Shown here one piece after another: positions 19,109 to 40,558 of a DNA stretch of 56,936 nt. The stretch is from assembly GCA_035485295.1 (NCBI GenBank), contig DATHOD010000153.1:1-56936 (forward strand), read 5' to 3'. Made by a program: the position numbers and the translations under genes. The stretch's first letter is position 1; every line of letters starts with the position of its first letter. This stretch comes from Bacteroidia bacterium (GTDB lineage: Bacteria > Bacteroidota > Bacteroidia > JABEUT01). The notes beneath the pieces were generated by a model. It was given only the letters and a program-made list of their open reading frames with translations, made no database searches and was not told the DNA's origin.

Positions 19109-20053
19109 ATGAAGCTAAAGGAGATATTTTTCGGCAAAAAGGAATCGAGTGGACTGGATATTGGGCTGACAAAAACCAAGGAAGGTTTTTTTGCAAGGCT
19201 GGCAAAAGCCATATCGGGCAAAGCAACAATAGATACTGAGGTATTAGATAATATTGAAGAAACACTTATTGCATCGGATGTGGGTACAACCACATCAGCC
19301 AAGATAATTGCAAACCTGCAAGCCCGAGTTGCCAAAAACAAAAACATTCAAAGCGGCGAGATATACAGCATGCTGAAAGAGGAAATGTCTGCACTTTTAA
19401 CAGCAAGCAATAATACAACCCCGGAACTACCGGAAGGCGTACCTTATGTCATTATGGTGGTAGGTGTGAATGGTGTGGGTAAAACAACTACCATTGGCAA
19501 ACTGGCAAACAATTTCAAAAAAGCAGGATTAAAGGTTGTACTTGGTGCAGCAGATACTTTCCGTGCGGCAGCAGTCGACCAGTTAACTATTTGGGCAAAA
19601 CGAGTTGATGTTCCTATTGTATCTCGTGGTATGGGTGCCGATCCATCAGCTGTGGCATACGATGCTGTGCAATCTGCTGTAGCTCAAAAAGCAGATATTG
19701 TGATAATAGATACTGCAGGACGTTTGCATAATAAAGCGGGTTTGATGAATGAACTTACGAAAATAAAACGTGTTATGCAGAAGGTTGTCCCTAGTGCACC
19801 TCACGAAGTATTGTTAGTATTAGATGCATCTACCGGGCAAAATGCAGTAGAACAGTGTAAAGAGTTTACTAAAGCAACGGATGTAACTGCATTAGCGCTT
19901 ACTAAACTAGATGGTACAGCTAAAGGCGGTGTGGTAATTGGAATATCGGACCAGTTTAAAATACCGGTGCGTTACATTGGCGTGGGAGAAAAAATGGAAG
20001 ACCTGCGCATGTTCGATAGACAGGAATTCGTAGAGAGCCTGTTTAAGAGATAA
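19109..20053 (+). CDS. ftsY: signal recognition particle receptor FtsY
   Basis: 314 aa, NG domain only. Motifs GVNGVGKTTTIGKLA, DTAGR and TKLDGTAKGG. Confidence 0.92.
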   Translation: MKLKEIFFGKKESSGLDIGLTKTKEGFFARLAKAISGKATIDTEVLDNIEETLIASDVGTTTSAKIIANLQARVAKNKNIQSGEIYSMLKEEMSALLTASNNTTPELPEGVPYVIMVVGVNGVGKTTTIGKLANNFKKAGLKVVLGAADTFRAAAVDQLTIWAKRVDVPIVSRGMGADPSAVAYDAVQSAVAQKADIVIIDTAGRLHNKAGLMNELTKIKRVMQKVVPSAPHEVLLVLDASTGQNAVEQCKEFTKATDVTALALTKLDGTAKGGVVIGISDQFKIPVRYIGVGEKMEDLRMFDRQEFVESLFKR

Positions 20054-20831
20054 GCTCTTCTATATACACCCCAATCTTCTTAGTAGCTTGTTTTGGGTTT
20101 GCCAGATTAGCTTCCAGTATTTTTATAATTGCACTGCCCACTATCACTCCATCAATCCCTGCTTTAGCGGCATTGGTAATATGTTCCTTTTTAGAGATTC
20201 CAAAACCCAATGCTAGCGGAAGCTTGGTATGCTTTCGTATTCTCCTAATAAAATCATAGGTATCATTTCCCATAGAGGTACGGCTACCCGTTACACCTAA
20301 TACAGAAACTAAGTACAAATATCCTTCTGCATGTTGAAGTATATTCTTTAGTCTTGCTTCGTTGGTGGTTTGGGTAACCATAAAAACTGGAGCTACTTTA
20401 TGCTTCTTAGCAGCTTTTACAAATTGCTCCGATTCCTCATAGGGCACATCGGGAATAAGTACTCCGTCAATTCCGCACTTAAGCGCTTGCTTATAAAACG
20501 TATCTATGCCATATTGGTAAACCAAATTGGCATAAACCAATACAGAGATCGGACCTTTATAAAACGAACGGATCTCACTTATCAGAGAGAATACATTCTC
20601 TGTATCAATTCCAGAATGCAATGCCCTCTCATCAGCAGCCTGAATAGTTGGGCCATCAGCCAACGGGTCAGAATAGGGGAAGCCGATTTCGAGCATATCT
20701 GCGTACGGAGCAATAGCGCGGAAAATAGAAAGACTTGTTTCAAAATCAGGATCACCAGCCACTAAAAATGGCATGAAGGCTGGCTTACCTTCTTTCTTTG
20801 CTTTGCTGAATGTATCGATAAATTTGCTCAT
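20043..20831 (-). CDS. trpA: tryptophan synthase alpha chain
   Basis: 262 aa with [25 protein letters not shown] and GFGIS motifs. Confidence 0.92.
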
Positions 20832-22024
20832 AGTTTCATCTTTTGAATGTGGTGTATAGCCTGCGCCAAATCCTTATCTCCCCTACCCGACAGGTTTACA
20901 ATTATGATCTTATCCTTAGGTAGCTTTTTTGCCAGTTTCACTGCATAAGCCACAGCATGCGATGATTCCAATGCAGGGATAATGCCTTCGGTTTGTGCCA
21001 ACAGCATAAATGCTTTTAATGCTTCTTCATCTGTTACGTAATCGTATTCTACTCTTTTAGTTTTGTATAAATCTGCATGCTCCGGACCAATGCTAGGGTA
21101 ATCAAGCCCTGCCGATATGCTATGTGTTTCGGTTATCTGTCCGAACTTATCTTGCAATACGTAAGAGAAAGTGCCATGCAATATACCTGGCCTTCCACCT
21201 GCAAAACGAGCCGCATGCTTCTTGCTTTTTATACTAATACCACCTGCCTCTACTCCAATAATCTTAATATTTTTCTCTTTCAAAAAATCATAGAATAATC
21301 CGATTGAATTACTTCCACCGCCCACACAAGCAACCAAATAATCAGGCAAGCGATTTGCTTGTTCCTTTATTTGTTTTCTTGATTCTTCTCCGATTATCTT
21401 TTGAAAGTCACGCACAATGGTCGGGTAAGGATGCGGGCCAAGCACAGAGCCTATTAGATAATGGGATGTATTAATATTCGTCACCCAATCGCGTATGGCT
21501 TCGTTAATGGCATCTTTTAAAGTTTTGCTCCCCGCAGATACAGGCACAACTTGAGCACCCAATAATTTCATGCGCTGCACATTGGGTTGCTGTCTTTCAA
21601 TATCTACTGTACCCATATACACCACACATTCCATACCTAAAGCCACTGCTACGGTAGCTGTAGCTACTCCATGTTGGCCTGCACCTGTCTCTGCAATCAA
21701 TCGCTTTTTGCCCATGTGCTTGGCTAACAAAGCTTGCCCGAGTGCATTATTAATTTTATGCGCACCGGTATGGGTAAGGTCTTCACGCTTTAAATAAATC
21801 TTTGCACCGCCTGTCTTTTGTGTGAGTTGTTTTGCAAAATACAATGGCGTTGGCCTTCCTACAAAATTGGTGAGCCAATCAGATAACTCCTTTTTAAAGT
21901 TCTTATCATTCGATAATTTCAAATACGCTCTTTCAAGCTCCTCCAAAGGTGCCATAAGGGTCTCAGGGACATACTGCCCGCCGAAATCCCCAAAATAGCC
22001 TTTGCGTTCTTTATTTTTTTTCAT
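20828..22024 (-). CDS. trpB: tryptophan synthase beta chain
   Basis: 398 aa. PLP-lysine motif [11 protein letters not shown], plus GGGSN. Confidence 0.95.
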
Positions 22025-22668
22025 GAATAGTAGTCATTCACTGCATTTATAATTTTTTTCATTTTTATTTTGCTCTTCTTACCCGGTGATATTTCTATCC
22101 CTCTTGATATATCTATAATTTCTGGCTTTAGTTTATCAAGATAACCAGTAACATTCTTTACATCAATCCCGCCGGAAAGCACAAGCTTTATTTTTTTCGC
22201 CGATAGCTTTTTATACAAGGTAAATCCATCAAACTCACCGGACTTATTATTAGCCTTTTCTACTGCACTACCTGAGTCGAGCAATATTCTATCCACATGC
22301 TTACTCATTTCCAACACATCGCCTTTGCCCTTATTGTTCCATGCTTTCCATACCTCAATCCCTTTTATCTTTTTAACAAGTTCCAATTGTTCATCTCCGT
22401 GCAACTGAATAACATCCACAAATCCACTTTTCGTAATCTTGAAAATATCGGTTAAAGGCATATTAACAGTCACAGCTACTACTCTGCATTTGCTCCTTTT
22501 AGTCTTCTTCACCCATTCCGCCGTTTGCAGGAATTGTTTTAAAGTTATGCTTCTTGGGCTTTTAGGAAAGTCAACAACAAAACCAAGGTAATCCACTCCA
22601 AGCTCTATTGCATATGCAATATCGTTCTTAGCCTTCATCCCACAGAATTTTATCTGAATCCTTTTCAT
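22021..22668 (-). CDS. trpF: phosphoribosylanthranilate isomerase
   Basis: 215 aa, IKFCGM start motif, positioned between trpC and trpB. Confidence 0.85.
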
Positions 22669-23480
22669 TGTATGCCTGCAATAAGTTCAACTAAAGCTTT
22701 ACCCGGATCAGGTGCACGCATAAAGTGGGTGCCGATAAGCACAGCATCTGCATTAGCATTCTTCATATAAAGCAGGTCCTCACGGGAATGGATGCCTGAT
22801 TCTGCTACAACTATTTTATCGTTTGGAATATGTTCCGCAATGGAGGAGAAAGTAGAATTATCAACCCCAAAGCTTTTCAGGTTGCGGTTGTTTATCCCAA
22901 TAATTTCTGCACCTATCCTCATTGCCTTCTCAAGCTCCTGCAAGGTATGGACCTCTACTAATGATTCTATTCCTAACTCATAACATAAAGCATATAAGTC
23001 CTTTAGTTTCGCTTCATCAAGTATTGCAGCAATCAGCAACACAGCATCTGCTCCTGCTGCCTTTGATTCATATACCTGCTTTTCATCAATCACAAAATCT
23101 TTGCGAATGACAGGCAATGAAACCGCCTTCTTAATTTCCTTTATCCATTCGATATCTCCTTGAAAGAATTGTTTATCGGTCACCACAGAAATAGCGGAAG
23201 CCCCATTCTGCATATATGCCTGGGCAATACCGCTTACATCTATATCTTTTCTGATAACACCTTCCGAAGGAGAAGCCTTTTTAATCTCTGCAATAATGCC
23301 TGGCCTCTTTTGCGTAATTGCAATAGAAAATTTTATTCCATTACTTGTTGGGGCGATTCTTGCAGCCTCTTTCCACAATTGGAAATCAGTAGCTGAGATA
23401 GCAGATACTTCTTCTACCTTCTTGTCGCAAATAGCATCTAATATAGTTCCCGTTTTGCTATACATAGTTTGATGCTGCAA
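22665..23480 (-). CDS. trpC: indole-3-glycerol phosphate synthase
   Basis: 271 aa with EIKKASPSEG and RKDFVIDE motifs. The start may be Met6 at 23465. Confidence 0.9.
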   Translation of the reverse strand: MQHQTMYSKTGTILDAICDKKVEEVSAISATDFQLWKEAARIAPTSNGIKFSIAITQKRPGIIAEIKKASPSEGVIRKDIDVSGIAQAYMQNGASAISVVTDKQFFQGDIEWIKEIKKAVSLPVIRKDFVIDEKQVYESKAAGADAVLLIAAILDEAKLKDLYALCYELGIESLVEVHTLQELEKAMRIGAEIIGINNRNLKSFGVDNSTFSSIAEHIPNDKIVVAESGIHSREDLLYMKNANADAVLIGTHFMRAPDPGKALVELIAGIQ

Positions 23481-24480
23481 TAAGTCTGTTCAGTTTCTTT
23501 AATGCCTTACCAGACTTAATAGCCTCGGCTGCCATTTCTTTAGCCACTTCTAAATCATCAGTCTTACCAAAGGTCATGAGCCCAACTGCAGCATTAATAA
23601 TAACAGTCTGCGTTTGCACTTCGGTTGCCTTGTTGTTCAATATATCCAAAATGATCTTAGCGCTCTGGGTTACATTCGTTATCTGTATTTCGGCCAAGCT
23701 AGCTCTACGTAATTTGTATTTTATTTTCTTTTCACTGCCTTCAGGCGATTGCTTTGAAAACTCAACAATCTTAGGCAAAGAGAAAAGACTTATTTCATCC
23801 ATTCCATCATTACTCCTAACAGCCCATAGGCGCTTAACACCTGCTTTTACAGCAGCTTCACCCATTAATGAGGTTATCTTCTTATCAAATACTCCCAAGG
23901 TTTGGTGGCTCACCCCGGCAGGGTTTACCAGTGGACCAAGTATATTGAAGTATGTTCTCTTACCATATTGTTTACGTGCTTCGGCTACATTTTTCATAGC
24001 CGGATGAAAACGCTGGGCAAATAAAAACACAAAACCTAATTCGTTGAAACATTCTACTGCATGGTCCGAGCTGAGCACAATATTCACACCTAATGCCTCA
24101 AGCACATCAGCACTACCGCAGCGGCTGCTGGCAGATCGGCTGCCATGCTTAATTACCGGGACATCGCAGGCAGCACATACAACGGATGCAACGGTAGAAA
24201 TATTAAATGTCCTTAGGCCATCTCCTCCTGTACCCACAATGTCCAATGCATCAGCTTTTATTGGCACTTCAATCATTGATTCACGTGTTGCCTTAATGAT
24301 CCCCTCCATTTCTTCCTGGGTAGGATAACGGCGGCCCATGGCAGAAAAGATCTTAACCAGTTCTTTATTATCCAGTGAACCCCTAAGGATTGCATTCTGC
24401 ATTTGATAAGCTTCCTGGGCCGATAGTCGCTTTTTCTCTTTTATCAGCTTGCTATATGATATTGGATTAGCTACTGCCAT
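23458..24480 (-). CDS. trpD: anthranilate phosphoribosyltransferase
   Basis: 340 aa with GTGGDG and KHGSRSASS motifs. Confidence 0.92.
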   Translation of the reverse strand: MAVANPISYSKLIKEKKRLSAQEAYQMQNAILRGSLDNKELVKIFSAMGRRYPTQEEMEGIIKATRESMIEVPIKADALDIVGTGGDGLRTFNISTVASVVCAACDVPVIKHGSRSASSRCGSADVLEALGVNIVLSSDHAVECFNELGFVFLFAQRFHPAMKNVAEARKQYGKRTYFNILGPLVNPAGVSHQTLGVFDKKITSLMGEAAVKAGVKRLWAVRSNDGMDEISLFSLPKIVEFSKQSPEGSEKKIKYKLRRASLAEIQITNVTQSAKIILDILNNKATEVQTQTVIINAAVGLMTFGKTDDLEVAKEMAAEAIKSGKALKKLNRLIAASNYV

Positions 24481-24481
24481 T

Positions 24482-25078
24482 TTAATTAAAAAGAAAGTTT
24501 TTAAGCATTGTACTACCTTCCTGCGTCGCGAACGACTCAGGATGAAACTGTATACCTTCTATAGGGTATTGTTTATGGCGAAGGCCCATAATTTCTTTTG
24601 TAGTATCGTTAGTATAAGCAGTTATCTCTAATGTGGCTGGCAATGATTCCCTTTCTACCATAAGCGAGTGGTAGCGCATTATCTGCACAGATTGGGGTAT
24701 ATTCTTAAACACACCTTTCTCATCATGCTTTATCGGACTTGTTTTGCCATGCATGGGTTGGTTAGATGGAACTACCTTGCCACCAAAATAATGAGCCATA
24801 CCCTGCATACCCAGGCATACTCCAAGTACAGGTAAATCCTTTTGAGGATTTAGTAATACCTCAGCACACACGCCAAAATAGGCCTTATCAGCTGGGTTAC
24901 CCGGGCCAGGTGAAAGAATTATTTTATTGTAATTCTTCTTTATCTCGCTCAGTGAAATCTTATCATTACGGCAAACATTAAGCACATTGGCCTTATTTTG
25001 CTGCATGAGCAAATCACCCACCATCTGGTAAAGATTGTAGGTGAATGAATCGTAATTATCTATGATCAGAACTTTCAT
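24482..25078 (-). CDS. trpG: anthranilate synthase component II (glutamine amidotransferase)
   Basis: 198 aa. Class I GATase with GVCLGMQ catalytic Cys and a HPES motif. Confidence 0.92.
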   Translation of the reverse strand: MKVLIIDNYDSFTYNLYQMVGDLLMQQNKANVLNVCRNDKISLSEIKKNYNKIILSPGPGNPADKAYFGVCAEVLLNPQKDLPVLGVCLGMQGMAHYFGGKVVPSNQPMHGKTSPIKHDEKGVFKNIPQSVQIMRYHSLMVERESLPATLEITAYTNDTTKEIMGLRHKQYPIEGIQFHPESFATQEGSTMLKNFLFN

Positions 25079-25162
25079 ATTTCATTCCGTTTTCTTTTCT
25101 CAATCTTTTCAATTTCCTCAATATAATCTCTAAGCTTCCACATCTCTTTAATCGTTTCCTCA

Positions 25163-25390
25163 TTATCGCAGCTTTTTTTTTAGATTTTCATTTAACCTAT
25201 CAATCCATTCCGTAGAAGCCAAGTCCTTCTTTACATAAAACATATCGGATATTAATCTCAAAAAATAAGATAAATCTTCATTAGAAAGAATACCTTCTAT
25301 ACCTTTCAACTGGTTCGGATAACCATTCATTGTATCTTGGTAGTTCCAATAATGCTCCTTATAGAATTTTATTTTTTCAAGGGTTATCAT
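25163..25390 (-). CDS. small hypothetical protein embedded between trpE and trpG (frame ends just after an A9 tract)
   Basis: 75-aa ORF starting 3 nt after the trpE stop. I recognise no family. See the finding on the frame break at 25173-25181. Confidence 0.5.
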   Translation of the reverse strand: MITLEKIKFYKEHYWNYQDTMNGYPNQLKGIEGILSNEDLSYFLRLISDMFYVKKDLASTEWIDRLNENLKKKLR

Positions 25391-25393
25391 TTT

Positions 25394-26764
25394 TTATTTG
25401 TTTAAAAACGGGTCTATTGCTTTCTGCATTCCGGCAAGCTTACTTAATATCTCGTTGTATTCTCCCAGCGGAGTAGAATCCCATACAATTCCGCCCGATG
25501 CCTGTGTATAACCTTCGCCATCGCTAATAAACATAGAACGGATAGGAATTGCCATTTTGCAATCGCCATTAAAACCAAAATAACCTATTGCACCACCATA
25601 AGGGCCGCGAGGGTTTTGTTCCAGCCTCTCAATTATTTTCATTGATTCTATCTTTGGCGTGCCCGATAATGTTCCTGCAGGGAAAGTGGCTGCCAATGCC
25701 GAGAACATATCCTCATCGGGAGAAATGATACCCATAACTTCGCTAGATATATGTTGCACATGGCTATAACGCTTCACTTCCATCAATCTCGATATCCTAA
25801 CTGTGCCAATACGAGCAACCTTTCCCAAATCATTTCTGTGCAGGTCAACCAACATTCTGTGCTCTGCTAATTCTTTGGGGTCAGTGAGCATAGTTTGTGC
25901 AAGTTCCATATCCTTCTCTACAGTTTTACCACGTTTAATAGTTCCTGCCAGCGGATATGTTTCCATTACCCCATCGTGAATATTCAACAATAATTCAGGG
26001 CTTGCACCAATTATAATTTTCTCCTTAAACTTCAAATAATACATATGTGGTGAAGGATTTATATCCCTAAGTCCCTCATATAATTGTATGGTATCTCCTT
26101 CCACATTAAACTGGCGCTTAAAACCAACCTGGCATTGGAAGGTATTACCCTTCTTAATTTCTTCAATTACTTCCTTCACAGCCTCATGATGACGTTCTTT
26201 CGTCATGCTATAGCCTTTCTCTTTAATCTTAAGAGAAGCTTTTGCTGGCTGCGTTCCTTCAATCAATTTCCTAATTAACTCAGAGCGATTCTCGGTATGA
26301 AAGAAGTAAGAGGTAATTCCTGTAGTCTTATCGTATACCAATCCATCGTCATATAATCCAAAAAGGAAAAGAGGAAAGCTCTTGTGTGGTTTTATAGACA
26401 ATGCTGATTCAAACAGAGTCATTGCATCGTAGCTGATATACCCCACCAATCCACCAGAGAAAACAGGAGGAGCCACATAATGCTTGGGGATAAAATTCCT
26501 TAATTCAAAATATGGGTTCTCCGAAAATTGCTTTTCACCGTTTATATACAAGGTTTTGTCTTCAGCGCTGATAATAGTAGATGGAGCAAAACCAATAACC
26601 GAATAACGTGCGTCCTTTGCATTCTCTCCTAAAGACTCAAGCAAAAAGCATGTATCAAATTCTTTCTCAACCTTTTTAAATAGAGCAAAAAAATCTAATC
26701 TGCCCAACTCAATATAGCTCGGGTTTTTAATTTCTGATACGTTGGCTTTGGTCTTTAACATCAC
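25394..26764 (-). CDS. trpE: anthranilate synthase component I
   Basis: 456 aa chorismate-binding enzyme with the [21 protein letters not shown] motif. Confidence 0.92.
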
Positions 26765-27871
26765 TTACAAATTCTGTGCTTTATGACGTAGGTAATGATC
26801 CATAATAACAAGTGCTGACATTGCATCTACAATAGGAACTGCTCTAGGTAATACGCAAGGGTCATGTCTACCTTCGGCAGCTAATGTCGCATGCTTAGAA
26901 GTCCTAGTTACGGTCTTTTGTGATTTTGAAATAGTAGCAACCGGCTTAAATGCAACCCGGAAATAAATATCTTCTCCTGTAGAAATACCGCCTAATGTAC
27001 CACCGGCATTATTTGATGATTTGGCAATTTTATTCTTGTTAAGGGTAAACAAATCGTTATGCTCACTTCCTCTCATACTCACTCCATCAAAACCCGAGCC
27101 AAACTCAAAACCTTTTACTGCATTAATGCTTAGCATGGCCTTGCCTAGATCAGCAGGGAGCTTATCAAATACAGGCTCACCAATACCCGGAGGCGGGTTC
27201 TTGATCAATCCTTTCACTACTCCACCTATTGAGTCACCATCACTCTTCACTTTCTCAATCAATTTGATCATTTTATCCGCAATAGCCTTATCAGGGCAAC
27301 GGACAATACTTTTCTCGATTGCCTGCGGAGTTACTTTGCTTAGCTCTATGCCAGTCTTGATATCTCCAACCTGTTCCACAAAACTTATGCACTCCGTTCC
27401 GAATTTCTCAAACAAATACTTTTTAGCAATTGCACCTGCTGCTACTCTTGCCAATGTTTCTCTGGCTGATGCACGCCCACTACCTCTCCAGTCACGCAGG
27501 CCATATTTTAGATCATATGTATAATCAGCATGAGATGGGCGATAGATATCCTTCATTGCTTCGTAATCAGATGACTTTGCATCTTTATTGAACGCAATCA
27601 GCAAGATAGGTGTACCCGTGGTTTTACCTTGAAATACTCCTGATAGAATGTGAATAGTATCCGCTTCTTTACGCGGAGTAGTGATTTTACTTTGTCCGGG
27701 TTTACGACGATCTAAGTCTGGCTGAATGTCCTTTTCAGATAACTTAAGTCCAGGAGGGCAGCCATCAACCACCACACCTACTGCAGCTCCGTGCGATTCT
27801 CCGAAAGTAGTTATACTAAATAATTGTCCGAAAGAATTTCCAGGCATAGTACTATGATTTAGTAATGGCAT
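26765..27871 (-). CDS. aroC: chorismate synthase
   Basis: 368 aa with TTFGESHG and RHDPCV motifs. Confidence 0.95.
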
Positions 27872-28532
27872 TATAAATTTCCCGCATCTCCTTGTAGGTC
27901 ATAAGCCCAGGAGCGATCTTATCTTTTCCAATAGCAACATAAGTGAGATAACTACCCATCAATGGGAATAATATCCTTGTCATCATGCCCTCCTTACCCA
28001 TTCCGATTAAAATAATATCCTCTGCTGCCTTTCGTTCACTTAATAAGTCAGCGAGGATTAGAATGTCCTTTTCCTTCTTGACCATAGTAGCCATCTTAAT
28101 AACTGCAGGCTTTGCTTTACGCATTTTTTTTAGAGTCGCCTTTAGTGATTTGAATGAAGGAGTATTTTGGAACGAATGATAAGACAATACCAATTTCTTC
28201 TTTTCCTTTGAGGACAAACTCTTTATCATACTATTACCGTAAGCAATATCAACAAACTTAAATCCTGCTTGGAAAGCTTTTTTTAGAATAGCGTGTTGTA
28301 CTTTTTTATCTCCGGCAAACTCACCACCTTCGCTAACATGGCGGCAGGTAAATATGGCAGCAGCCTTCGTACTTTTCTTCAAGAGCTTAACATCGTCCTC
28401 CTTGAACCCTTTAATCGTATCTACTCGAAGTTCTATCAGAGGCGAAATACGTTCAGCCTCTTTAAGGTTCTTAAGAAACAACTGGATAGTGCTCCCTCTA
28501 ACAACAGGGCAAATTTTAAATGGTAGTGACAT
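27852..28532 (-). CDS. aroD: type I 3-dehydroquinate dehydratase
   Basis: 226 aa. ELRVD motif and the Schiff-base Lys context VIKMATM. Confidence 0.8.
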
Positions 28533-29370
28533 GGTTTAATTCATTTTTTAGAGCGTTACGCATTGCTTGTTCAGGGGCTTTCAAGCCCGTATATAATTCA
28601 AATTGCATCATTCCTTGTCTTAACAGCATTTCCAATCCATCAACATTTACTGCACCTTTTCTTTCCGCAGCATGTGCCAGGGAAGTTCCGTTAACACTAT
28701 AATTTACATCAAACACAATTTGCTCTTTCTGAATAATACTTTCATCAATTGGCAGAGCCTCTCCTTCTTTACCAATAGGAGTCGTATTAATAATAATATC
28801 TGCCTGTAGATTATTGCGTTGCTCCCAACTTTTCACTTTGCAGCCAAAAGATTCAGCCAACTCATCTGCTTTTTCAGTATTGCGGCTATAGATTATTACA
28901 CTGCATTTCCCTTTTGTGAGTCCGTATACAATTGCTCTTGCTGAGCCGCCTGAGCCCAATACAGCTACTTTTTTGTTAGAAAGCGAAACGTGTTGCTTCA
29001 AGCTTTCCATGGCGCCATAGTAGTCCGTATTATATCCTATCAGCTTGCCATTTACATTCAATACTGTATTTACCGCACCAATGTGCCTTGCTTCATCATT
29101 AATTTCATTAAGGTATTGCATAATAGCTTCCTTATGCGGGATAGTAACCGCAAATGCATGAATACCATTTGCTCTTATCTCTTTTATCCCCTGCTTAAGT
29201 TCAGTAGCAGCAATTCGCATTAGTTTAAATTCATATTGAGAATCAATCCCCAAAGCTTTATATGCAGCATTATGCATGGCAGGAGAAAGCGAACGCCCCA
29301 CATGGTCACCTATCACCAGGCATATTTTCTTGTGTGCATCAGTGGCCATAGGTAGAACCGAATTTATCAA
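28516..29370 (-). CDS. aroE: shikimate 5-dehydrogenase
   Basis: 284 aa with the SLSPAMHNAAY motif, an NTD motif and GSGGSARA Rossmann motif. The start may be Met8 at 29349. Confidence 0.9.
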   Translation of the reverse strand: MINSVLPMATDAHKKICLVIGDHVGRSLSPAMHNAAYKALGIDSQYEFKLMRIAATELKQGIKEIRANGIHAFAVTIPHKEAIMQYLNEINDEARHIGAVNTVLNVNGKLIGYNTDYYGAMESLKQHVSLSNKKVAVLGSGGSARAIVYGLTKGKCSVIIYSRNTEKADELAESFGCKVKSWEQRNNLQADIIINTTPIGKEGEALPIDESIIQKEQIVFDVNYSVNGTSLAHAAERKGAVNVDGLEMLLRQGMMQFELYTGLKAPEQAMRNALKNELNHVTTI

Positions 29371-29851
29371 TAATTATTTGCACGACCTCTTCCGGAGTTT
29401 TATCATCTGTATCAATCATATCATGAGCATATTCCCTATATGCAGAAAGTCTTTGGGCATATAACAACATTGCTTTTTCCTCCTGCCTGAATAAAGGGCG
29501 TGTAGTTGTGTTCTTTAGCCTGTCTTTAATCTTTTCAAAACTTGCATGCAAGAAAACCACATCAGCATTTCCTTTTAAAACCTCCATGCTCTGCTTCTTA
29601 TTTATCACACCACCGCCACATGAAATAATAGTATTCCCGTCTTTTACAGCTGCTTCAATAGCTTTCTCTTCCAATTCCCTAAAATACTCTTCACCTTTCT
29701 CATCAAATATTTCATTAATGTTGGAAAAACCTGATAGACGCAATACTTCCGTATCCGTTTCAACCAAATTGGCATTCAGCTTTTTGGCCAATAGCTCAGC
29801 CACAGTGCTCTTGCCTGCTCCCATAAAACCTATCAGTGCAATGTTTTTCAT
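29339..29851 (-). CDS. aroK: shikimate kinase
   Basis: 170 aa. P-loop GFMGAGKST, plus a GGG motif. Confidence 0.9.
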   Translation of the reverse strand: MKNIALIGFMGAGKSTVAELLAKKLNANLVETDTEVLRLSGFSNINEIFDEKGEEYFRELEEKAIEAAVKDGNTIISCGGGVINKKQSMEVLKGNADVVFLHASFEKIKDRLKNTTTRPLFRQEEKAMLLYAQRLSAYREYAHDMIDTDDKTPEEVVQIIIDKFGSTYGH

Positions 29852-31143
29852 TTCATCTCAACATTTACACCAATCGACTTAAGAGCTTCCCAAAAACCGG
29901 GATATGACTTCTTAACCACTTCAGGAGATTCAATACCAATACCTTCCACCTTCATCCCGGCTATTGCAAATGCCATAGCCATACGATGATCGCTATACGT
30001 GCTTATAGTGGCAGCCTTAGGTGCGCCACCTTTTATTTTTATAAAGTCATTGCCTGCCTCGCACTCAATACCCATTTTTTCGAGTTCCATTTGCAAGGCA
30101 GTAATGCGTTTACTTTCTTTCAATTGTAATGTCTTCAATCCGGTAATAATCGTTTCGCCTTTTGCAAATGCAGCCAAAACAGCCAGTGTTTGAGCCGTAT
30201 CGGGCATAGTTTGCATATTCACTTCAATCGCCTTAAGTGTATTGGTTCCTGTAACTTCTAAGTATTCTTTATCACCTACTGTACAACCCATCTGCTTAAG
30301 TATCTTCACAAAACGCGCATCGCTTTGCAAACTGTTAGCAGAAACATTTGTTACTGCTATTTTACTCTGGGTAAGCGCCGCTATTGCCAGCATATACGAT
30401 GCAGCAGAAGCATCCCCCTCAACTTTATACTTAGTTCCTTTATATGCCTTATTACCACCTACAAAATAATGCTTGCCTGATTTTTCCACATCCATTCCAA
30501 ACTCTTTCATTACTGAAGTAGTCATGTCGATATATGGTTCTGAAACCTGCTCGCCATCTATTACTATTTCAGTATCTGTACTTAGTGCAGGAGCAATCAT
30601 AAGCAAAGCAGAAACAAACTGGCTGCTTACATTTCCGTTCACATGAACATTACCACCGTTAATAGTTCCGCCATTTATTTTAATTGGAGGGTAGCCATCA
30701 TTATCGGAATACGTAATCTCAGCACCAAGCTTTTTAAGCGCATCAACCAATTCTTTTATCGGGCGATGGTTCATTCGGTCTGAGCCCTCAATGGTTATTT
30801 CTCCGGGTACTATAGAACAGAGTGCTGTAAGAAATCGCATAACAGTTCCGGCGTCTTCCACATTCAATACCCCGTTAAACTCATCGAACTTTCCGCCATT
30901 ACCTCTCACTTGAACAACTCCATCTTGCTCTATTATTTCAACACCAAGCCTATCAAGAAGAGTAATCAATATCCTGCTATCATTTGAATCTGATGCACCC
31001 TGCAATGTGGTAATACCATCTGCAAGGGCAGCAACTATCAATGCCCTATTGGTAAAACTTTTAGAGCCGGGTACCTGTACTTTAGCCTCAATAGGCTTTA
31101 CAAGCGGATGAACTGTTGCTATGGTCTTTGTCGCTTGTGTCAT
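29848..31143 (-). CDS. aroA: 3-phosphoshikimate 1-carboxyvinyltransferase (EPSP synthase)
   Basis: 431 aa with PGSKSFTNRALI and DHRMAMAFA motifs. Confidence 0.95.
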   Translation of the reverse strand: MTQATKTIATVHPLVKPIEAKVQVPGSKSFTNRALIVAALADGITTLQGASDSNDSRILITLLDRLGVEIIEQDGVVQVRGNGGKFDEFNGVLNVEDAGTVMRFLTALCSIVPGEITIEGSDRMNHRPIKELVDALKKLGAEITYSDNDGYPPIKINGGTINGGNVHVNGNVSSQFVSALLMIAPALSTDTEIVIDGEQVSEPYIDMTTSVMKEFGMDVEKSGKHYFVGGNKAYKGTKYKVEGDASAASYMLAIAALTQSKIAVTNVSANSLQSDARFVKILKQMGCTVGDKEYLEVTGTNTLKAIEVNMQTMPDTAQTLAVLAAFAKGETIITGLKTLQLKESKRITALQMELEKMGIECEAGNDFIKIKGGAPKAATISTYSDHRMAMAFAIAGMKVEGIGIESPEVVKKSYPGFWEALKSIGVNVEMK

Positions 31144-32238
31144 TTAGGTTAGTATATAGTCTATTGCTTTATTTATCAGTTTCTCAGGTTGTTCTTCATC
31201 AATTACTGCTTTTCCAATGCCATTCAGTAACACCCATTTTATCTTTTTGCTTTCGTTCTTCTTATCTCCCAGCATTTTTTCGTACATCTTCTTTTTGAAA
31301 GAACGGCTCACCTTTGCAGGCAAATTCGCTCTTGCAATTATCTTCTCTACGTTCTTAAAATCTCCGTTGGTAATAAGCCCAGCCAATAACGATAATCTTG
31401 CTTCTGCAATCATACCAATAGAAATAGCTTCGCCATGTAGTAGCGGGTTTGCAGTATCATGGCTTATCATCTCTATAGCGTGTCCCACTGTATGCCCGAA
31501 GTTCAATACCTTTCTCAAGCCCTGTTCTTCCGCATCTTTCGAAACCACATTGCATTTTATATCACATGAACGTGCCAATATCTTAGCAAGCTTCTGCTCA
31601 TCCATATCACCGAAATCTGATGCATACAGATCGGTGTAAAGCTTTTTATCAGCAATAAGAGCATGTTTAATTACCTCAGCAAAACCGGAACGAAACTCTC
31701 GTTCAGGTAAAGTAGATAAGAACAACGTATCGCAGATAATTGCAAGCGGGTGAGTAAAAGTACCTACCATATTCTTAAAACCTCCAAAATCTATTCCTGT
31801 CTTTCCGCCAATAGCCGCATCGGTTTGTGCGAGCAGCGTTGTTGGCATATTCACAAATGAAATGCCACGCATATATGTACTGGCTACAAATCCGCCAATA
31901 TCACATACCATGCCTCCACCAATATTAACCAGTAACGATTTCCTATCGAATCCTTGCTTTACCAATGAAGTTAGAATCTTGGCAACAGTAGTAATATCTT
32001 TATGTTCTTCTCCGGCAGGTATAATTATATACACCGCATCCTTTCCAAATACTTTATGTATCGATTCTCCCCAGTGGTACGCCACATTCTTATCCATCAG
32101 CACACTCACACGTGAAAAAGACTTTAGCGGAATAAGCTTCGTTACCTCAGAATAAATATCATTGCCTACATAAATAGGTACCGACACTTTGTTCTGGGAA
32201 ACTGTAAGCCTTGTATGTTCCCTCAACTTCGTTTTCAT
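31144..32238 (-). CDS. aroB: 3-dehydroquinate synthase
   Basis: 364 aa with GGGMVCDIGGFVAS and HTVGHAIE motifs. Confidence 0.92.
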   Translation of the reverse strand: MKTKLREHTRLTVSQNKVSVPIYVGNDIYSEVTKLIPLKSFSRVSVLMDKNVAYHWGESIHKVFGKDAVYIIIPAGEEHKDITTVAKILTSLVKQGFDRKSLLVNIGGGMVCDIGGFVASTYMRGISFVNMPTTLLAQTDAAIGGKTGIDFGGFKNMVGTFTHPLAIICDTLFLSTLPEREFRSGFAEVIKHALIADKKLYTDLYASDFGDMDEQKLAKILARSCDIKCNVVSKDAEEQGLRKVLNFGHTVGHAIEMISHDTANPLLHGEAISIGMIAEARLSLLAGLITNGDFKNVEKIIARANLPAKVSRSFKKKMYEKMLGDKKNESKKIKWVLLNGIGKAVIDEEQPEKLINKAIDYILT

Positions 32239-32243
32239 GATTA

Positions 32244-33206
32244 TCAGCCCGCTTTTTTACCAGTTGAAACAGAGGCCTTTTGTTCATTGGGTGGAACAAT
32301 ATCGCGGAACTTAGATAATGCATCTATCAGTATCTTTAGCTCAGCATGGGTAATATGCTGCTCCGTATCCGTCTGTGATGTACCGGCTTCTATAAGTATC
32401 CCGTCATATAAATATTCATCTTCAGCAACCATCATCTGCATAGCTTCCAATGTGCCTTCCACAATCTTATCTTTCATCTTAGGCCCGAAAGTATGCGATG
32501 GGTCGAAATACATCTTCTTGCCGCTATCCCTTTTAACTTTTCTTGCGGAATCATGCAAAGGCAGATTTCTGTATAATCCACGTTCAGCAACATCCACTCC
32601 GCGATGTATATATATAATATCACTAATCTGTGGCACATAGGTACCGATACCTAACCAGGTTTTCTCCATGCTATTATAACCATCACTTCCATCCTTACCA
32701 ACCCATTTCGGATTCTTGATTCCGAGCTTCCATGCATTGTGCTTACTACACTCATACATTTCCATCAGGTTCCAGCCAATTTGAAGTACTGCAGGTGTCC
32801 ATAATAACAGTTCATGATCTCTTAATACTTTATCGCAAAGCGGAACCTGTATCAAGGGTGCCACAATCTCGGTTGCAACCATCATACCTGTCTTCTTAAT
32901 AAACTCATCGGTCACTTGAATACTGGGTAGCATCTTCATGTCCTTTATTCCCCCGCCACTGGCATACGTCCTCATGTTATTCACAAACACCTCACGGTCT
33001 ATACCCATTGAGCCTTCTTTCTCGGTATATGAAGTACGTGACTTAACACCAACTATACGCACACCCGTTATGGCCTTTTGCACTTCCCCAAAACGGTTCT
33101 TTACTTCCATTTCGGAGAGAGTGTAAACTTCAGGCAGGTTTTTTTCGCCTATTGAGCAGGGACCTGCTATAACCGCCACTTGTGTATTCCTTATTTTCTG
33201 TTCCAT
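32244..33206 (-). CDS. divergent DAHP synthase-like enzyme (class I-beta DAHPS/KDO8PS fold)
   Basis: 320 aa. AGPCSI, KSRTSY (compare KPRTSP), IHRG and DPSH motifs lie in DAHPS-I-beta order. It is the first gene of the aro block. Several canonical residues are substituted. Confidence 0.6.
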   Translation of the reverse strand: MEQKIRNTQVAVIAGPCSIGEKNLPEVYTLSEMEVKNRFGEVQKAITGVRIVGVKSRTSYTEKEGSMGIDREVFVNNMRTYASGGGIKDMKMLPSIQVTDEFIKKTGMMVATEIVAPLIQVPLCDKVLRDHELLLWTPAVLQIGWNLMEMYECSKHNAWKLGIKNPKWVGKDGSDGYNSMEKTWLGIGTYVPQISDIIYIHRGVDVAERGLYRNLPLHDSARKVKRDSGKKMYFDPSHTFGPKMKDKIVEGTLEAMQMMVAEDEYLYDGILIEAGTSQTDTEQHITHAELKILIDALSKFRDIVPPNEQKASVSTGKKAG

Positions 33207-33306
33207 AATTCGATATAAAAATAATAATAAATAGCCTCACTTTGCGTGATACTCTTTCTGCAGAAAAACTAATAATTTTAAAGAATAGCAGTAAGAGCCT
33301 GTTTAC
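33207..33306 (-). promoter_or_regulatory. candidate transcription attenuator (alternative helices plus U-rich tract) between leader ORF and first aro gene
   Basis: Helices were found by hand. 33312-33303 pairs with 33294-33287. 33297-33291 can instead pair with 33240-33235. A hairpin at 33253-33233 is followed by the U-rich tract 33232-33213. Confidence 0.45.
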
Positions 33307-33402
33307 TTAGCTCCACCACCAATAAGAAACGGAAATAGTGCCAGAAGCCTTATAATTAAAGCCTTCAGCACAATAATGAAATATATCCGTTTTGATTTGC
33401 AT
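33307..33402 (-). CDS. putative Trp/aromatic leader peptide (31 aa, MQIKTDIFHYCAEGFNYKASGTISVSYWWWS)
   Basis: Hand translation of the minus strand. Three consecutive TGG codons lie at 33321-33313, one codon before the stop. It sits in the only real gap of the operon block. Confidence 0.6.
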   Translation of the reverse strand: MQIKTDIFHYCAEGFNYKASGTISVSYWWWS

Positions 33403-33422
33403 GGCGCAAAGGTAAGAAATAT

Positions 33423-33797
33423 TTAAACAACCGCAGCAGGTGGTTGCTGTTTATTGATCCTTGCAAAGAAGTAAATAGGGAAAGCAATTAAGCCAATAAA
33501 TACAAAAAGTAGCACCCATATAACCCGCTCAGAACTATCAATGTTCTTATTATTAATCGCGTGTACAATATAAAACACAAGCAAACCCAATGTAACCAAA
33601 GACATAAGTATAATATAAAGAGCTAAAGGCGCAATAATATTCAAGATCTCCTCTGTTGTAGGCTTCTGCATATGCCCGCTATCTATTTGAGGAGCAAAAT
33701 GCATAATGGCCTGAAAGAAATTATAGAAAAACAATATCAATAATAGAACGGGGAGAAATGTAAAAATCCCCAATATTACTTTTGCGGCTGTATTCAT
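33423..33797 (-). CDS. small membrane protein, PLD-nuclease N-terminal (PLDc_N)-like
   Basis: 124 aa with 3 TM helices. The C-terminal helix WVLLFVFIGLIAFPIYFF resembles the PLDc_N/cardiolipin-synthase N-terminal domain. Confidence 0.5.
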   Translation of the reverse strand: MNTAAKVILGIFTFLPVLLLILFFYNFFQAIMHFAPQIDSGHMQKPTTEEILNIIAPLALYIILMSLVTLGLLVFYIVHAINNKNIDSSERVIWVLLFVFIGLIAFPIYFFARINKQQPPAAVV

Positions 33798-33801
33798 AAT
33801 G

Positions 33802-34890
33802 CTAAAGATAATTTTTTATCAGTTTCAAAGTCTCCTGTCTTTTGACTTTTCCATTGGGTGTTTCTATAAACTCTTTCAGAACCAAATAATCTTTAGGCCT
33901 TTCATACTTACTTAAAGTTTTCTCAACCTTATTCCTTACCTCATTTACTTTGTTCACAGCCATTCCCTCTATTACAAGTACTACTTTTTCACCTAGCTTA
34001 TTATCAGGTAAAGAGGCAATAAAAAACCGGTTATTGGGGATTAGTTTTGATATTTTCCCTTCTATCCTCTCAGGAAATATCTTTATCCCTCCGCTATTGA
34101 TAACATTATCGTAACGCCCTAACCAACGGAAATGATTCTTGTCAACTATCTCTATAACATCATTAGTACTTATAGAGTTGTCGTTTAATTTGAGAGCATT
34201 TACTACCATGCACCCTCTTTTATCTCTCTTGATCTTGATACCAGGGAGCAATTCAAAAACATCTGTTTTTTGCTTTCTACTCAATTTTCTTAGCGCAATA
34301 TGGCTTAATGTCTCAGTCATTGCAAAAGTTGCGTAAACTTTGTTTCTGCTTTTACTAACTGCCTTTTCAAGTGAATGAGATATTGCTGCACCGCCAACAA
34401 TAACACTAGTTATATTCTCAAATACCTTTCTGGTAGCAGTGCCTGAAAGTGAATTCTCAACCTGCAAAGGGACCATAGCTAAGAAATCTATTTTCTGTTT
34501 TAATCCTTTCAACAGATTGCCATTCGGTTCAACGACAATAAGGTTTGCCCCACTCACTAATGCACGTATAACCATCATTTTACCAGCTATGAAATCAGCA
34601 GAAAGGCAAAGCAACAGATTTGATTTTGGGGTAAGATGAAAATACTTACAAGTCATTTTTGCACTTGCAATCATCTGCTCCTTACGGACAGTGACCCGCT
34701 TAGGAACACCTGTAGATCCTGATGTTTTAAGCTTAATGGTGATTCCCAGCGCTAACCATTCCTTTATAAATGAAAATAGCGAACGCTCATATTCGCTAAG
34801 TTTATTTTGCTCCAGTTTGCTCTTAACTAAAAGTACCAACTCATCTTTCGAGTAATTCTTACCATTTAATTTTAGGCTTTGATACTGCAT
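33802..34890 (-). CDS. menE: o-succinylbenzoate-CoA ligase (short AMP-binding enzyme)
   Basis: 362 aa. AMP-binding P-loop TSGSTGVPK. Located in the men cluster. Confidence 0.8.
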   Translation of the reverse strand: MQYQSLKLNGKNYSKDELVLLVKSKLEQNKLSEYERSLFSFIKEWLALGITIKLKTSGSTGVPKRVTVRKEQMIASAKMTCKYFHLTPKSNLLLCLSADFIAGKMMVIRALVSGANLIVVEPNGNLLKGLKQKIDFLAMVPLQVENSLSGTATRKVFENITSVIVGGAAISHSLEKAVSKSRNKVYATFAMTETLSHIALRKLSRKQKTDVFELLPGIKIKRDKRGCMVVNALKLNDNSISTNDVIEIVDKNHFRWLGRYDNVINSGGIKIFPERIEGKISKLIPNNRFFIASLPDNKLGEKVVLVIEGMAVNKVNEVRNKVEKTLSKYERPKDYLVLKEFIETPNGKVKRQETLKLIKNYL

Positions 34891-34892
34891 TA

Positions 34893-35954
34893 TTATTTGC
34901 CCTTTAAAATCTCATCCACATTCCAGGAACCTTTGTACCACAGCTTTGAATCTTCAATCACCAAGGGGGAAGCAATATTGTTGGTATATAATTGTCCAGT
35001 ACCTAAGCCCTGTGGCATATCATTATTGAGCATTTGTGTCCATTGCGCAATAGCATTCAACCCAATATTCGATTCTAAGGCAGAGGTGATCCACCATTTT
35101 ATTCCAAATTCATTTGCTAAGTCTATCCATTCCTGAGTGCCGGAAAAACCACCTAACAACGATGGCTTTAGAATTAGATATTGCGGTTCAATTTCCGAAA
35201 TCAACATCTCTTTTCCAAACATTAAAAACTCATTAACTAGTTCTTCATCTAATGCAATGGGTATAGGAGATTCTCTAGATATCTCAGCCATCTTTCTTGG
35301 TGAGCCGGCCATAATAGGCTGCTCTATAGAATGTATATTGAACCTAGACAACTGTTCCAGCTTCCTCAATGCATCTTCATGTGCAAACGCACCGTTCGCA
35401 TCAAGTCGTAGTTCTATATCAGGGTAATGCTCTCTTAATTGAGTAAGCAATTCCAACTCCTCTTCAAATGCAATACCGCCTATTTTGATCTTTATGCATT
35501 TAAATCCTTCTTTAGTTTTTGCATTTAATTGCTCTTGCATAAAATCAAAGCTACCCATCCAAATTAAGCCGTTGATATAAATACCTTGCTTGCCTTCTGT
35601 AAATTCAGATGGAAACAAAATGCGGTTGCCCCCACCCTTCAAATCCTGCAGAGCAGTCTCCACACCAAAACAGATAGACGGCCATTCAACAAGACTTTCA
35701 TGAGGATTCAATATGTATTCATTGATGTTATCACAAGCATGCTTTAGCATCTTTTCATAGCCTTCATTATCATCCAGGCTTAAACCCTTTAGTGTGCTGC
35801 ATTCTCCAATTCCAATTGAAGAATTAGAATCCTGTTCCAGGATAATATAGTAGGTATCTTTTTCTGTAAGCACTCCCCTTGAAGTCCCAGATGGGCGCTT
35901 AAAGCTTAGGATATGTTTTTTATAACGAGCCTTATACATAGGAGTAAAAAACAA
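34893..35954 (-). CDS. menC: o-succinylbenzoate synthase (enolase superfamily)
   Basis: 353 aa with KIKIG, LDANGAF and DEEL metal-ligand pattern. Located in the men cluster. Confidence 0.8.
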   Translation of the reverse strand: MFFTPMYKARYKKHILSFKRPSGTSRGVLTEKDTYYIILEQDSNSSIGIGECSTLKGLSLDDNEGYEKMLKHACDNINEYILNPHESLVEWPSICFGVETALQDLKGGGNRILFPSEFTEGKQGIYINGLIWMGSFDFMQEQLNAKTKEGFKCIKIKIGGIAFEEELELLTQLREHYPDIELRLDANGAFAHEDALRKLEQLSRFNIHSIEQPIMAGSPRKMAEISRESPIPIALDEELVNEFLMFGKEMLISEIEPQYLILKPSLLGGFSGTQEWIDLANEFGIKWWITSALESNIGLNAIAQWTQMLNNDMPQGLGTGQLYTNNIASPLVIEDSKLWYKGSWNVDEILKGK

Positions 35955-40431: not shown

Positions 40432-40558
40432 AAGCGAGTGCAAATATATAATAGCTTTAGAAGCAACAGCCCATAGGTATACTATATGCAAGTAAGCCTA
40501 CTTTAATTTTATGCCTTTTTTATCGTATATTCGTAATAACCATTCCAATATAATAGGC

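Follow-up and report, generated by a model that had tools for sequence, protein, structure and literature searches.

A putative tryptophan-sensing leader-peptide attenuator ahead of a chorismate and tryptophan operon in uncultured Bacteroidia

The window analyzed here is the whole stretch of contig DATHOD010000153.1 (56,936 nucleotides (nt); assembly GCA_035485295.1, Bacteroidia bacterium). The element in question is a 216-nt interval on its minus strand, located between the gene of a 124-residue membrane protein upstream (33797–33423) and 15 open reading frames (ORFs) downstream, the first of which encodes a DAHP synthase-like enzyme followed by aro and trp genes. Comparison of related loci and RNA folding indicate that this interval is probably a ribosome-mediated leader-peptide transcription attenuator sensing charged tRNA-Trp. 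The element is real and conserved, and it most likely belongs to the known trpL-type class. Its layout is distinctive in that translation probably starts at the transcript end, the ORF is long and structured, and a single codon separates the Trp run from the stop. Whereas the sensor and the switch are well supported, the terminator output is the weakest link and is not settled. The initial annotation, made from the sequence alone, had proposed the stalling logic of Escherichia coli trpL. Its core, a Trp-codon leader ORF with mutually exclusive helices, is supported in 19 sequences, but the conserved registers of the first helix (H1) and of the antiterminator differ from those proposed, and the terminator is weak.

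Translation of the minus strand agrees with the annotated 31-codon ORF (33402–33307) ending in Tyr-Trp-Trp-Trp-Ser-stop, with eight aromatic residues (2 Phe, 3 Tyr and 3 Trp), and the three TGG codons are placed as described (33321–33313). Their 9-mer, TGGTGGTGG, is present in two copies in the window against 0.25 expected from shuffles. The second copy (37300–37308) is inside an enoyl-CoA hydratase/isomerase-family gene (PF00378, MenB-like), where it reads Gly-Gly and not Trp by frame arithmetic from the ORF start at 37664.

For comparison, 68 loci around DAHP synthase-like homologues (designated L001, L002 and so on) were gathered by a one-genome-per-species scan, a JGI metagenome scan and nine contig look-ups. 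All loci compared are from uncultured organisms, and the Bacteroidia leaders have an orthologous, very divergent DAHP synthase gene downstream. The leader ORF is carried by 19 distinct upstream regions (the window and 18 others) with 64–100% DAHP synthase identity. It is 26–31 codons long in all of them, and a single codon (Ser, Cys, Gln or Arg), never more or fewer, separates its Trp run from the stop (TAA, TAG or TGA). The run is WWW in 18 leaders and WW in L064, while the start codon is ATG in 13 sequences and GTG in 6. Conservation of a short ORF with a Trp run among orthologues, the check named in the initial annotation, was thus found in every distinct leader, together with the open frame. 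The leader stop lies 99–104 nt from the DAHP synthase ATG in the leader-bearing set, a distance that rules out reinitiation as a coupling between the two.

Frame 0 contains no stop in 437 codons, versus 40 and 27 stops in 419 codons of the other two frames, and the ORF bodies (66, 69, 75, 81 and 84 nt) are multiples of three throughout. The bodies of the leader peptides are poorly conserved, with a mean pairwise score of 0.22. Since the frame stays open and length changes occur in multiples of three despite this divergence, the pattern is the signature of an ORF that is translated and whose product is of no consequence. The same data bear on a functional small protein, or a nascent peptide like TnaC, an arrest peptide acting at termination in which free Trp is sensed at the stop codon. 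The Trp run one codon before the stop in 19 out of 19 leaders is reminiscent of arrest peptides of this kind. However, the bodies are poorly conserved, the last residue varies among Ser, Cys, Gln and Arg, and the data can be accounted for without an arrest triggered by free Trp, which makes this explanation very improbable.

The leader mRNA is probably leaderless, with its transcript starting at or near the leader ATG, as judged from the position of a promoter box. The putative promoter P1 has a −7 box matching TAnnTTTG, the Bacteroidetes sigma-A consensus, at the annotated position (33414–33407), ending 4 nt before the start codon. Taken by itself, the box pattern is not unusually rare, with one occurrence in the window against 1.33 expected by chance. 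Across the set, the box ends exactly 4 nt before the start in 15 of the 19 leaders, with a gap of 5 nt in L030. In the L005 group, a TATTTTTG box about 13 nt upstream was read by eye where the scripted search reported none. Since TAnnTTTG occupies −12 to −5 in Flavobacterium psychrophilum (PMC9723704), a 4-nt gap would put +1 on the first base of the leader start codon. Leaderless mRNAs account for 5.5% in the same species (PMC9723704), and mRNAs with a 5′ untranslated region (UTR) below 10 nt for about 3.7% in Bacteroides thetaiotaomicron (PMC7366714). The nearly leaderless transcript suggested initially is therefore backed by the fixed spacing in relatives, which would place the translated start essentially at the transcript 5′ end. 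In addition, the relative L032 (79% DAHP synthase identity) misses both leader and switch and has a TACCTTTG box 5 nt ahead of the DAHP synthase ATG (L032:2960–3003), so that it looks like a natural deletion of the attenuator that fused P1 to the gene.

Upstream, the stop codon of the 124-residue membrane-protein gene is found 8 nt before the P1 box. The last codons of this gene contain a small hairpin with a weak T-tail on both strands (33434–33449), the sole terminator-like site near the leader from the consensus scan, which could keep part of the upstream transcription from entering the leader.

Downstream of the Trp codons, three RNA segments (Table 1) can form two alternative helices. Folding was done per sequence from the start codon, and the stalled ribosome was mimicked by making the Trp-codon bases unavailable. 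The region 33200–33420 folds better than its shuffles (z = −2.84). In the window, helix 1:2 joins 33321–33309 with 33299–33286 at −13.3 kcal/mol, and helix 2:3 joins 33298–33288 with 33261–33251 at −11.6 kcal/mol. Both are predicted in all 19 sequences, with −7 to −15.5 kcal/mol for 1:2 and −7 to −17 kcal/mol for 2:3. In a set of 15 sequences, 96% of the alignment cells were paired for each helix compared with 24–62% when the partner strand was slid, and the sole compensatory change was U-A/U-G to C-G in helix 2:3 of L037. When the Trp codons were masked, 4–11 of the segment 2 bases paired with segment 1 re-paired downstream in 19/19 sequences.

Mutually exclusive helices after the Trp-codon ORF, as annotated, are thus borne out by three-segment complementarity across the 19 distinct sequences, but in other registers. 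The H1 pairing of 33312–33303 with 33294–33287 can form in the window sequence and is not the one kept in relatives. The CUCUUAC:GUGAGG antiterminator is also possible in the window but was rejected, since its 3′ partner varies (UUGAGG, ACAAGG, GUUAAG, GAGAGG) without keeping complementarity; the conserved pairing is CUCUUACUGC with GCAGnAAGrG. A palindrome particular to the window, UUUCUG/CAGAAA (33255–33266, minus strand), arises because segment 3 reads GCAGAAAGAG there in place of GCAGCAAGrG. Through this palindrome, segment 3 can also pair with the U-run just before it, which adds a third competing structure that the relatives lack.

The cores of segments 1, 2 and 3 change in concert between divergent members: the window has GGAGCU/GGCUC/AGAGU, L062 has GGCAAU/AUUGCC/GGCAAG, and L064 has GGCGC/CGCC/GGCGAG. 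The last sense codon changes with its pairing partner, which argues that it is constrained by pairing and not by the amino acid. This would also suit an element that acts as RNA alone or by binding a protein (T-box, riboswitch or TRAP-like), with the UGG run serving as an RNA motif and the ORF having no role, given that the Trp codons and the next codon belong to a conserved helix and the final sense codon (Ser, Cys, Gln, Arg) follows the pairing partner. However, Rfam 15 gave no relevant match, either at the gathering score in the window or up to E = 10 for 33150–33470; both searches gave only chance-level hits to unrelated eukaryotic families, and a T-box was rejected on this ground. A TRAP site was rejected as well, since a regular-expression search of all 19 leader regions found no run of at least five (G/U)AG triplets spaced 2–3 nt. 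Moreover, the frame is open everywhere while the other frames are rich in stops, three different stop codons occupy one position, and the start keeps a fixed distance to the box. An element of this type is accordingly given only a very slim chance of being correct.

The position of the stop codon fits the same switch. With the usual footprint of 12–13 nt downstream, a ribosome halted at the stop codon would reach about 3–5 bases into segment 2. These are the bases that hold the terminator base in helix 2:3, and they are free when the ribosome is on the Trp codons. This footprint geometry would explain why the stop is fixed one codon past the Trp run.

Regarding the output, the annotated 21-nt hairpin (33253–33233) was reproduced by folding with a ribosome placed on the stop codon. 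Its base is formed by the last three bases of segment 3 (33253–33251), and its tail, AUUUAUUAUUAU, has 8 U in 12 positions. The outer three pairs have a probability of 0.43 when the RNA is free; this rises to 0.64 if a ribosome occupies the stop and falls to 0.00–0.01 if it occupies the Trp codons. Most sequences have an interrupted hairpin that ends in AGGCU (or GCCU) directly before the U-rich tract and takes its 5′ arm or its base from segment 3, while in the L005 group the hairpin lies next to segment 3 with no overlap. Masking of the Trp codons lowers the probability of the hairpin adjacent to the U-rich tract from 0.35–0.9 to at most 0.17 in about 12 of the 19 sequences, a count that spans two hairpin definitions (automatic detection and local folds) disagreeing for some sequences. 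Automatic terminator detection missed seven sequences, which were redone with unconstrained local folds. The hairpin and U-rich tract proposed as a terminator are present, but the structure is weak, is not called by the scan, and its U-rich tract coincides with a conserved promoter-like box.

The same ribosome sensor could act through another output, namely Rho loading, RNA cleavage or interference with the downstream promoter-like box; in the Rho case, loading would take place on the untranslated spacer of about 100 nt, with C over G, after ribosome release. The strong conservation of the sensor parts next to a weak and heterogeneous hairpin and U-rich tract speaks for such an output, as do five sequences without a predicted terminator switch. 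The invariant order of Trp run, one codon and stop also suits a mechanism that reads ribosome retention versus departure. Nevertheless, this explanation is judged unlikely, since segment 3 overlaps the 5′ arm of the hairpin next to the U-rich tract in most sequences, this hairpin is predicted to vanish on stalling in about 12/19, and a G/C-rich block of 4–5 nt immediately before the U-run is conserved.

The U-rich tract also contains a TAnnTTT(A/G) box, the candidate −7 box of a second promoter (P2). Of the 18 leader-bearing loci that were tabulated, 17 have this box 8–11 nt ahead of the DAHP synthase ATG; in L030 the gap is 5 nt. The same box is found in 18 of 21 leader-less relatives, at 10–11 nt from the ATG in 17, the other being the P1-like box of L032 at 5 nt. 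Some of these leader-less loci have a divergent upstream gene and therefore need their own promoter. The flanking G/C-TTTTTT block ahead of the box is common to both kinds of loci. In L038, L040 and L068, the GGCTTTTTTGTA..TACTTTT block is retained and the Trp ORF is absent; L038 additionally retains CTTAACTGC, similar to segment 2. From these comparisons, the terminator tail probably overlaps an ancestral promoter. P2, if active, would supply Trp-independent expression and so ease the conflict with Phe, Tyr and menaquinone synthesis, which draw on chorismate as well; this is speculative. The equivalent box site was noted in L007, L009–L011, L014, L038, L040, L042–L053 and L068.

These data raise the alternative that the T-rich block (33216–33223 and flanks) is chiefly the sigma-A promoter of the operon, the leader transcript being a fraction inducible by Trp starvation or a separate short transcript. 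It is favored by the box kept at 8–11 nt in 17/18 leader-bearing and at 10–11 nt in 17/21 leader-less loci, by the shared G/C-TTTTTT flank and by the three loci that keep the block without the Trp ORF. On the other hand, the box ends in A instead of the consensus G in all leader-bearing sequences, and a conserved three-segment switch with a 99–104 nt spacing would have no purpose unless transcripts from P1 continued into the operon. Altogether, the two-promoter arrangement is rather doubtful as the main explanation, and it can coexist with attenuation.

Leader codons and operon content were also compared, and the regulatory codons follow what the operon makes. The Trp leader accompanies operons with trpE after aroC. 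In the clade with 52–56% DAHP synthase identity, no leader ORF was found at any locus, and in L007, L010 and L011, the three loci where the operon end was checked, the operon ends after aroC at a convergent gene. The homologues resembling the candidate phyla radiation (40–46% identity) have leaders rich in Phe and Tyr (such as MNTSNQYFYFFFFYPPN, MNISNQNFYFFYFYPP, MVRITNCYFYFFYPV and MTATNSHRWFYFYFIF), followed by strong G+C hairpins and U-runs. Their operons contain chorismate mutase, prephenate dehydrogenase and dehydratase, and an aminotransferase in L013 and L058, and only aroA, aroK and aroE within the fetched stretch of L055. On comparison, these leaders look like Phe/Tyr attenuators in Patescibacteria-like genomes.

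Sensing of several aromatic amino acids, suggested initially from the Phe/Tyr/Trp-rich leader, was not sustained as a conserved feature. The number of Phe and Tyr residues upstream of the Trp run goes from 0 (L031) to 7 of 22–28 residues, scattered and never in runs, and a single Tyr or Phe directly precedes the run in 9 of the 19 sequences. In the 31-codon subgroup, Phe and Tyr may make a minor contribution.

Several observations weigh against Trp-responsive attenuation. Column-wise covariation statistics were not significant in the close set, where both helices are almost invariant, and the covariation evidence comes from a few divergent sequences that were folded one by one. When the 1:2 hairpins, divergent members among them, were aligned with MAFFT, RNAalifold predicted no pairs; the loops are of unequal length and the 3′ strands were misaligned. 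The terminator hairpins have interrupted stems and low stability (−2.5 to −9.4 kcal/mol), with tails of 6–9 U in 12 nt broken by A, and the consensus promoter/terminator scan, which gave no minus-strand terminator at this site, does not call the window hairpin. The folds of L005, L023, L030, L062 and L064 show no hairpin loss on stalling. The T-rich block corresponds by homology to what is probably the promoter in relatives without a leader, and so may not have evolved as a terminator tail. Finally, L006/L066 (62% DAHP synthase identity) have trpE after aroC without a Trp leader.

The upstream region of these two loci (L006:1500–1734 and L066:1270–1500) contains a TAATTTTG box and a different short ORF (MGFMKPCR).

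A further structured domain, P0, is found inside the leader ORF. In the window it folds at −21.1 kcal/mol (z = −3.93), and z ranges from −1.6 to −3.9 in 11 of 14 distinct sequences. Its inner hairpins are unrelated in sequence between lineages, and the closing helix is formed in most leaders. P0 ends 5–6 nt before the Trp codons. It may act as a pause hairpin for RNA polymerase and so keep transcription and translation in step.

According to the attenuation mechanism proposed, transcription would start at P1, probably on the A of the leader ATG as judged by spacing, giving a leaderless mRNA, and the ribosome would translate the 31-codon ORF, as frame conservation suggests. P0 may delay RNA polymerase so that the ribosome can catch up. 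With ample Trp, the ribosome would pass the three UGG codons and halt one codon later, covering the first bases of segment 2, and after its release segment 1 would pair with segment 2. Segment 3, free in both situations, could close the hairpin abutting the U-rich tract, for which the pairing potential is seen in the folds, and transcription would presumably terminate ahead of the DAHP synthase gene. Under Trp shortage, the ribosome would stall on the UGG codons and cover segment 1, so that segment 2 would pair with segment 3, the base of the hairpin would be lost, and the polymerase would read into the 14-gene chorismate and tryptophan operon. The promoter-like box in the U-rich tract may give some Trp-independent basal expression for Phe, Tyr and menaquinone, although this part is speculative.

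A more specific proposal is put forward tentatively and is judged less likely than not. The sensor ORF would be truly leaderless, with transcription starting on the A or G of its start codon. Given the invariant order of Trp run, one codon and stop, a ribosome shift of only 4–12 nt would decide the outcome by freeing or covering the few segment 2 bases that hold the base of a weak terminator. The U-rich tract would double as the −7 box of a second, Trp-blind promoter, and Trp would modulate rather than gate the chorismate pathway, which also supplies Phe, Tyr and the adjacent menaquinone genes. A more remote variant, by analogy with TnaC, has free Trp sensed during termination by the WWW-X-stop end of the peptide.

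Table 1. Positions of the leader features, the presumed regulated unit and the Phe/Tyr-rich leaders of distant relatives. Window coordinates are used unless a locus is given.
Feature	Position	Strand	Sequence, content or basis
Promoter P1, −7 box	33407..33414	minus	TACCTTTG; Bacteroidetes sigma-A consensus TAnnTTTG; 4-nt gap to leader ATG
Leader ORF, 31 codons + TAA	33307..33402	minus	translation MQIKTDIFHYCAEGFNYKASGTISVSYWWWS; ATG at 33402, TAA 33309–33307
Hairpin domain P0	33327..33392	minus	AAAACGGA (33392–33386) with UCCGUUU (33333–33327), inner hairpin enclosed
Trp codons UGG UGG UGG, proposed sensing site	33313..33321	minus	DNA TGGTGGTGG
Segment 1 (Trp codons, Ser codon, first stop base), 5′ strand of helix 1:2	33309..33321	minus	folding
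Segment 2, pairs with segment 1 or segment 3	33286..33299	minus	GGCUCUUACUGCUA; folding, alignment
Segment 3, 3′ strand of antiterminator helix 2:3	33251..33261	minus	GCAGAAAGAGU; folding, alignment
Terminator-like hairpin 3:4	33233..33253	minus	AGU.UCAC-GCAAA-GUGA.GCU; folding, −5.5 kcal/mol, one internal mismatch
U-rich tract, would-be terminator tail	33213..33232	minus	AUUUAUUAUUAUUUUUAUAU; sequence
TAnnTTT(A/G) box, candidate −7 box of promoter P2	33216..33223	minus	TATTTTTA; motif, comparison
First structural gene, 320-residue very divergent type I-beta DAHP synthase-like enzyme	32244..33206	minus	fold match, position
Rest of presumed regulated unit	20043..32238	minus	aroB, aroA, aroK, aroE, aroD, aroC, trpE, 75-codon ORF, trpG, trpD, trpC, trpF, trpB, trpA
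Phe/Tyr-rich leader sites	L013:5740–6000; L055:2830–3000; L056:30–210; L058:2800–3000; L054:1200–1413		

The first gene of the operon was assigned by fold. Its product has no Pfam match of its own, and an NCBIfam match to DAHP synthase spans only 20 residues. The gene has 342 relatives in metagenome-assembled genomes labeled "Bacteroidia bacterium" and Patescibacteria, many of which carry PF00793, while a profile of this DAHP synthase-like family gave no match to PDB sequences. The AlphaFold model of the product has a predicted local distance difference test score (pLDDT) of 81.6, and its best Foldseek matches are type I-beta DAHP synthases (1VR6, 1RZM, 3TFC and 4C1L) and KDO8P synthases, with a template-modeling (TM) score of about 0.6 and 15–17% identity. 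The DAHP synthases best matched in fold are from Thermotoga maritima, Listeria and Pyrococcus furiosus. Given the modeled fold and the position at the head of the operon, DAHP synthase function is a reasonable inference, and therefore the regulated unit probably holds the whole common pathway. The initial annotation had considered a unit made of the entire common shikimate pathway plus trp unusual; such a unit is probable here, and the layout and setting of the switch are indeed unusual. Leader control of this kind is not unprecedented, with a Trp leader (Bacteroid-trp) already predicted in Bacteroidetes and a leader-controlled DAHP synthase operon (aroR) known in Corynebacterium glutamicum.

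The order DAHP synthase-aroBAKEDC-trpE is kept in L001, L002, L005 and L008, and trpE is 6.4 kb downstream of the leader element. The leader interval had been described as the only substantial gap in the minus-strand block, which is roughly right: there is also a 315-nt interval between trpE and trpG (25079–25393), and it holds the 75-codon ORF. This ORF (MITLEKIKFYKEHYWNYQDT..., 25163–25390, minus strand) has no Pfam match.

On the upstream side, 33423–40491 (minus strand) contains genes consistent with menaquinone synthesis, running on the same strand straight into the leader promoter. Those scanned are MenE-like (NCBIfam), the PLDc_N-like 124-residue membrane protein and a MenB-like PF00378 enoyl-CoA hydratase, and neighboring ORFs match MR_MLE (menC-like) and UbiA (menA-like) genes of related contigs. 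Thus, chorismate-making and chorismate-using genes form one block of roughly 20 kb. In L001 and L008, a menE-like gene lies directly before the leader.

The family offers a clean conserved test case, with promoter, start, sensor codons, stop and switch helices at fixed distances, and with natural controls in a lineage where the leader is deleted and in sister operons with Phe/Tyr leaders or none. The supply of one amino acid apparently tunes the entire shikimate pathway together with the branch leading to it, so that Phe, Tyr and quinone synthesis would need some form of protection. In addition, a very divergent DAHP synthase family, unrecognized by Pfam and PDB sequence searches, heads aro operons in Bacteroidia and in bacteria resembling the candidate phyla radiation. 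With a covariance model built from the 19 sequences, this leader, at present overlooked by Rfam, could be annotated.

In Proteobacteria, leader-peptide attenuation is a textbook mechanism, and Bacteroidota differ in their promoters and in not using Shine-Dalgarno-led initiation. In the classical Yanofsky model of E. coli trpL (Rfam Trp_leader, RF00513), ribosome stalling leads to readthrough. The element described here shares with it a short ORF with tandem Trp codons in segment 1, alternative 1:2, 2:3 and 3:4 pairings, a stop located where segment 1 gives way to segment 2, a U-rich tract ahead of the first gene of the pathway and, as proposed, readthrough upon stalling. There is, however, no sequence or covariance-model similarity between the two. 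Three Trp codons are found here instead of two, with only one codon from the Trp run to the stop, and the ORF is twice as long with a strong internal hairpin. It is probably leaderless without a Shine-Dalgarno sequence, the terminator is weak and AU-rich, and the presumed unit comprises all seven common-pathway steps plus trp.

In the aromatic supraoperon of Bacillus subtilis, aro and trp genes are co-transcribed from more than one promoter, and trpEDCFBA is controlled by TRAP, a protein that binds (G/U)AG repeats. The two systems would be alike in having aro and trp genes in one long unit, more than one promoter and Trp-responsive termination upstream of the trp genes. In B. subtilis, however, the control point is between the aro and trp genes, whereas here it is upstream of the whole pathway, and TRAP repeats are not present in the leader regions.

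For Bacteroidota, leader-peptide attenuation is limited to computational predictions in the literature found (Bacteroid-trp and F. psychrophilum 5′ UTRs). The Bacteroid-trp leader (RF01692) was predicted upstream of trpB and trpE in Bacteroidetes, as given in the supplement of Weinberg et al. 2010 (PMC2864571). Going by this supplement, it belongs to the same phylum and has a predicted Trp leader peptide with WW or WWW, and several seeds show a TAnnTTTG box a few nt before the AUGAAAAC start and an AAGGCUU block downstream. RF01692 itself gave no match at the gathering score in the window or up to E = 10 in 33150–33470, in a search with no positive control for the model. With an nhmmer profile of the 22 seeds, the best match in the window was the UGG run alone (33325–33303, E = 0.11, 8 bits), and the reciprocal seed matches were confined to the same run. 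The seeds encode 15–20 residues with 3–8 codons past the Trp run in 21 of 22 (the outlier has 29 residues and 16 codons), compared with 26–31 residues and exactly one codon here, and they precede trpB or trpE, whereas the present element precedes the DAHP synthase gene.

A regulatory parallel for a DAHP synthase gene at the head of the unit is found in C. glutamicum. In the passages of PMC11802643 that cite Neshat et al. 2014, the aroR leader senses Phe via Phe-Tyr-Phe and controls aroF (DAHP synthase) and early aro genes only, and a separate trpL leader controls trpEGDCFBA. As in aroR, a leader peptide stands over an operon starting with a DAHP synthase gene. Compared with the C. glutamicum leaders as described there, the phylum and the promoter and translation signals differ, and a leader with Trp codons as its only sensing site would govern DAHP synthase, the common pathway and trp as one unit.

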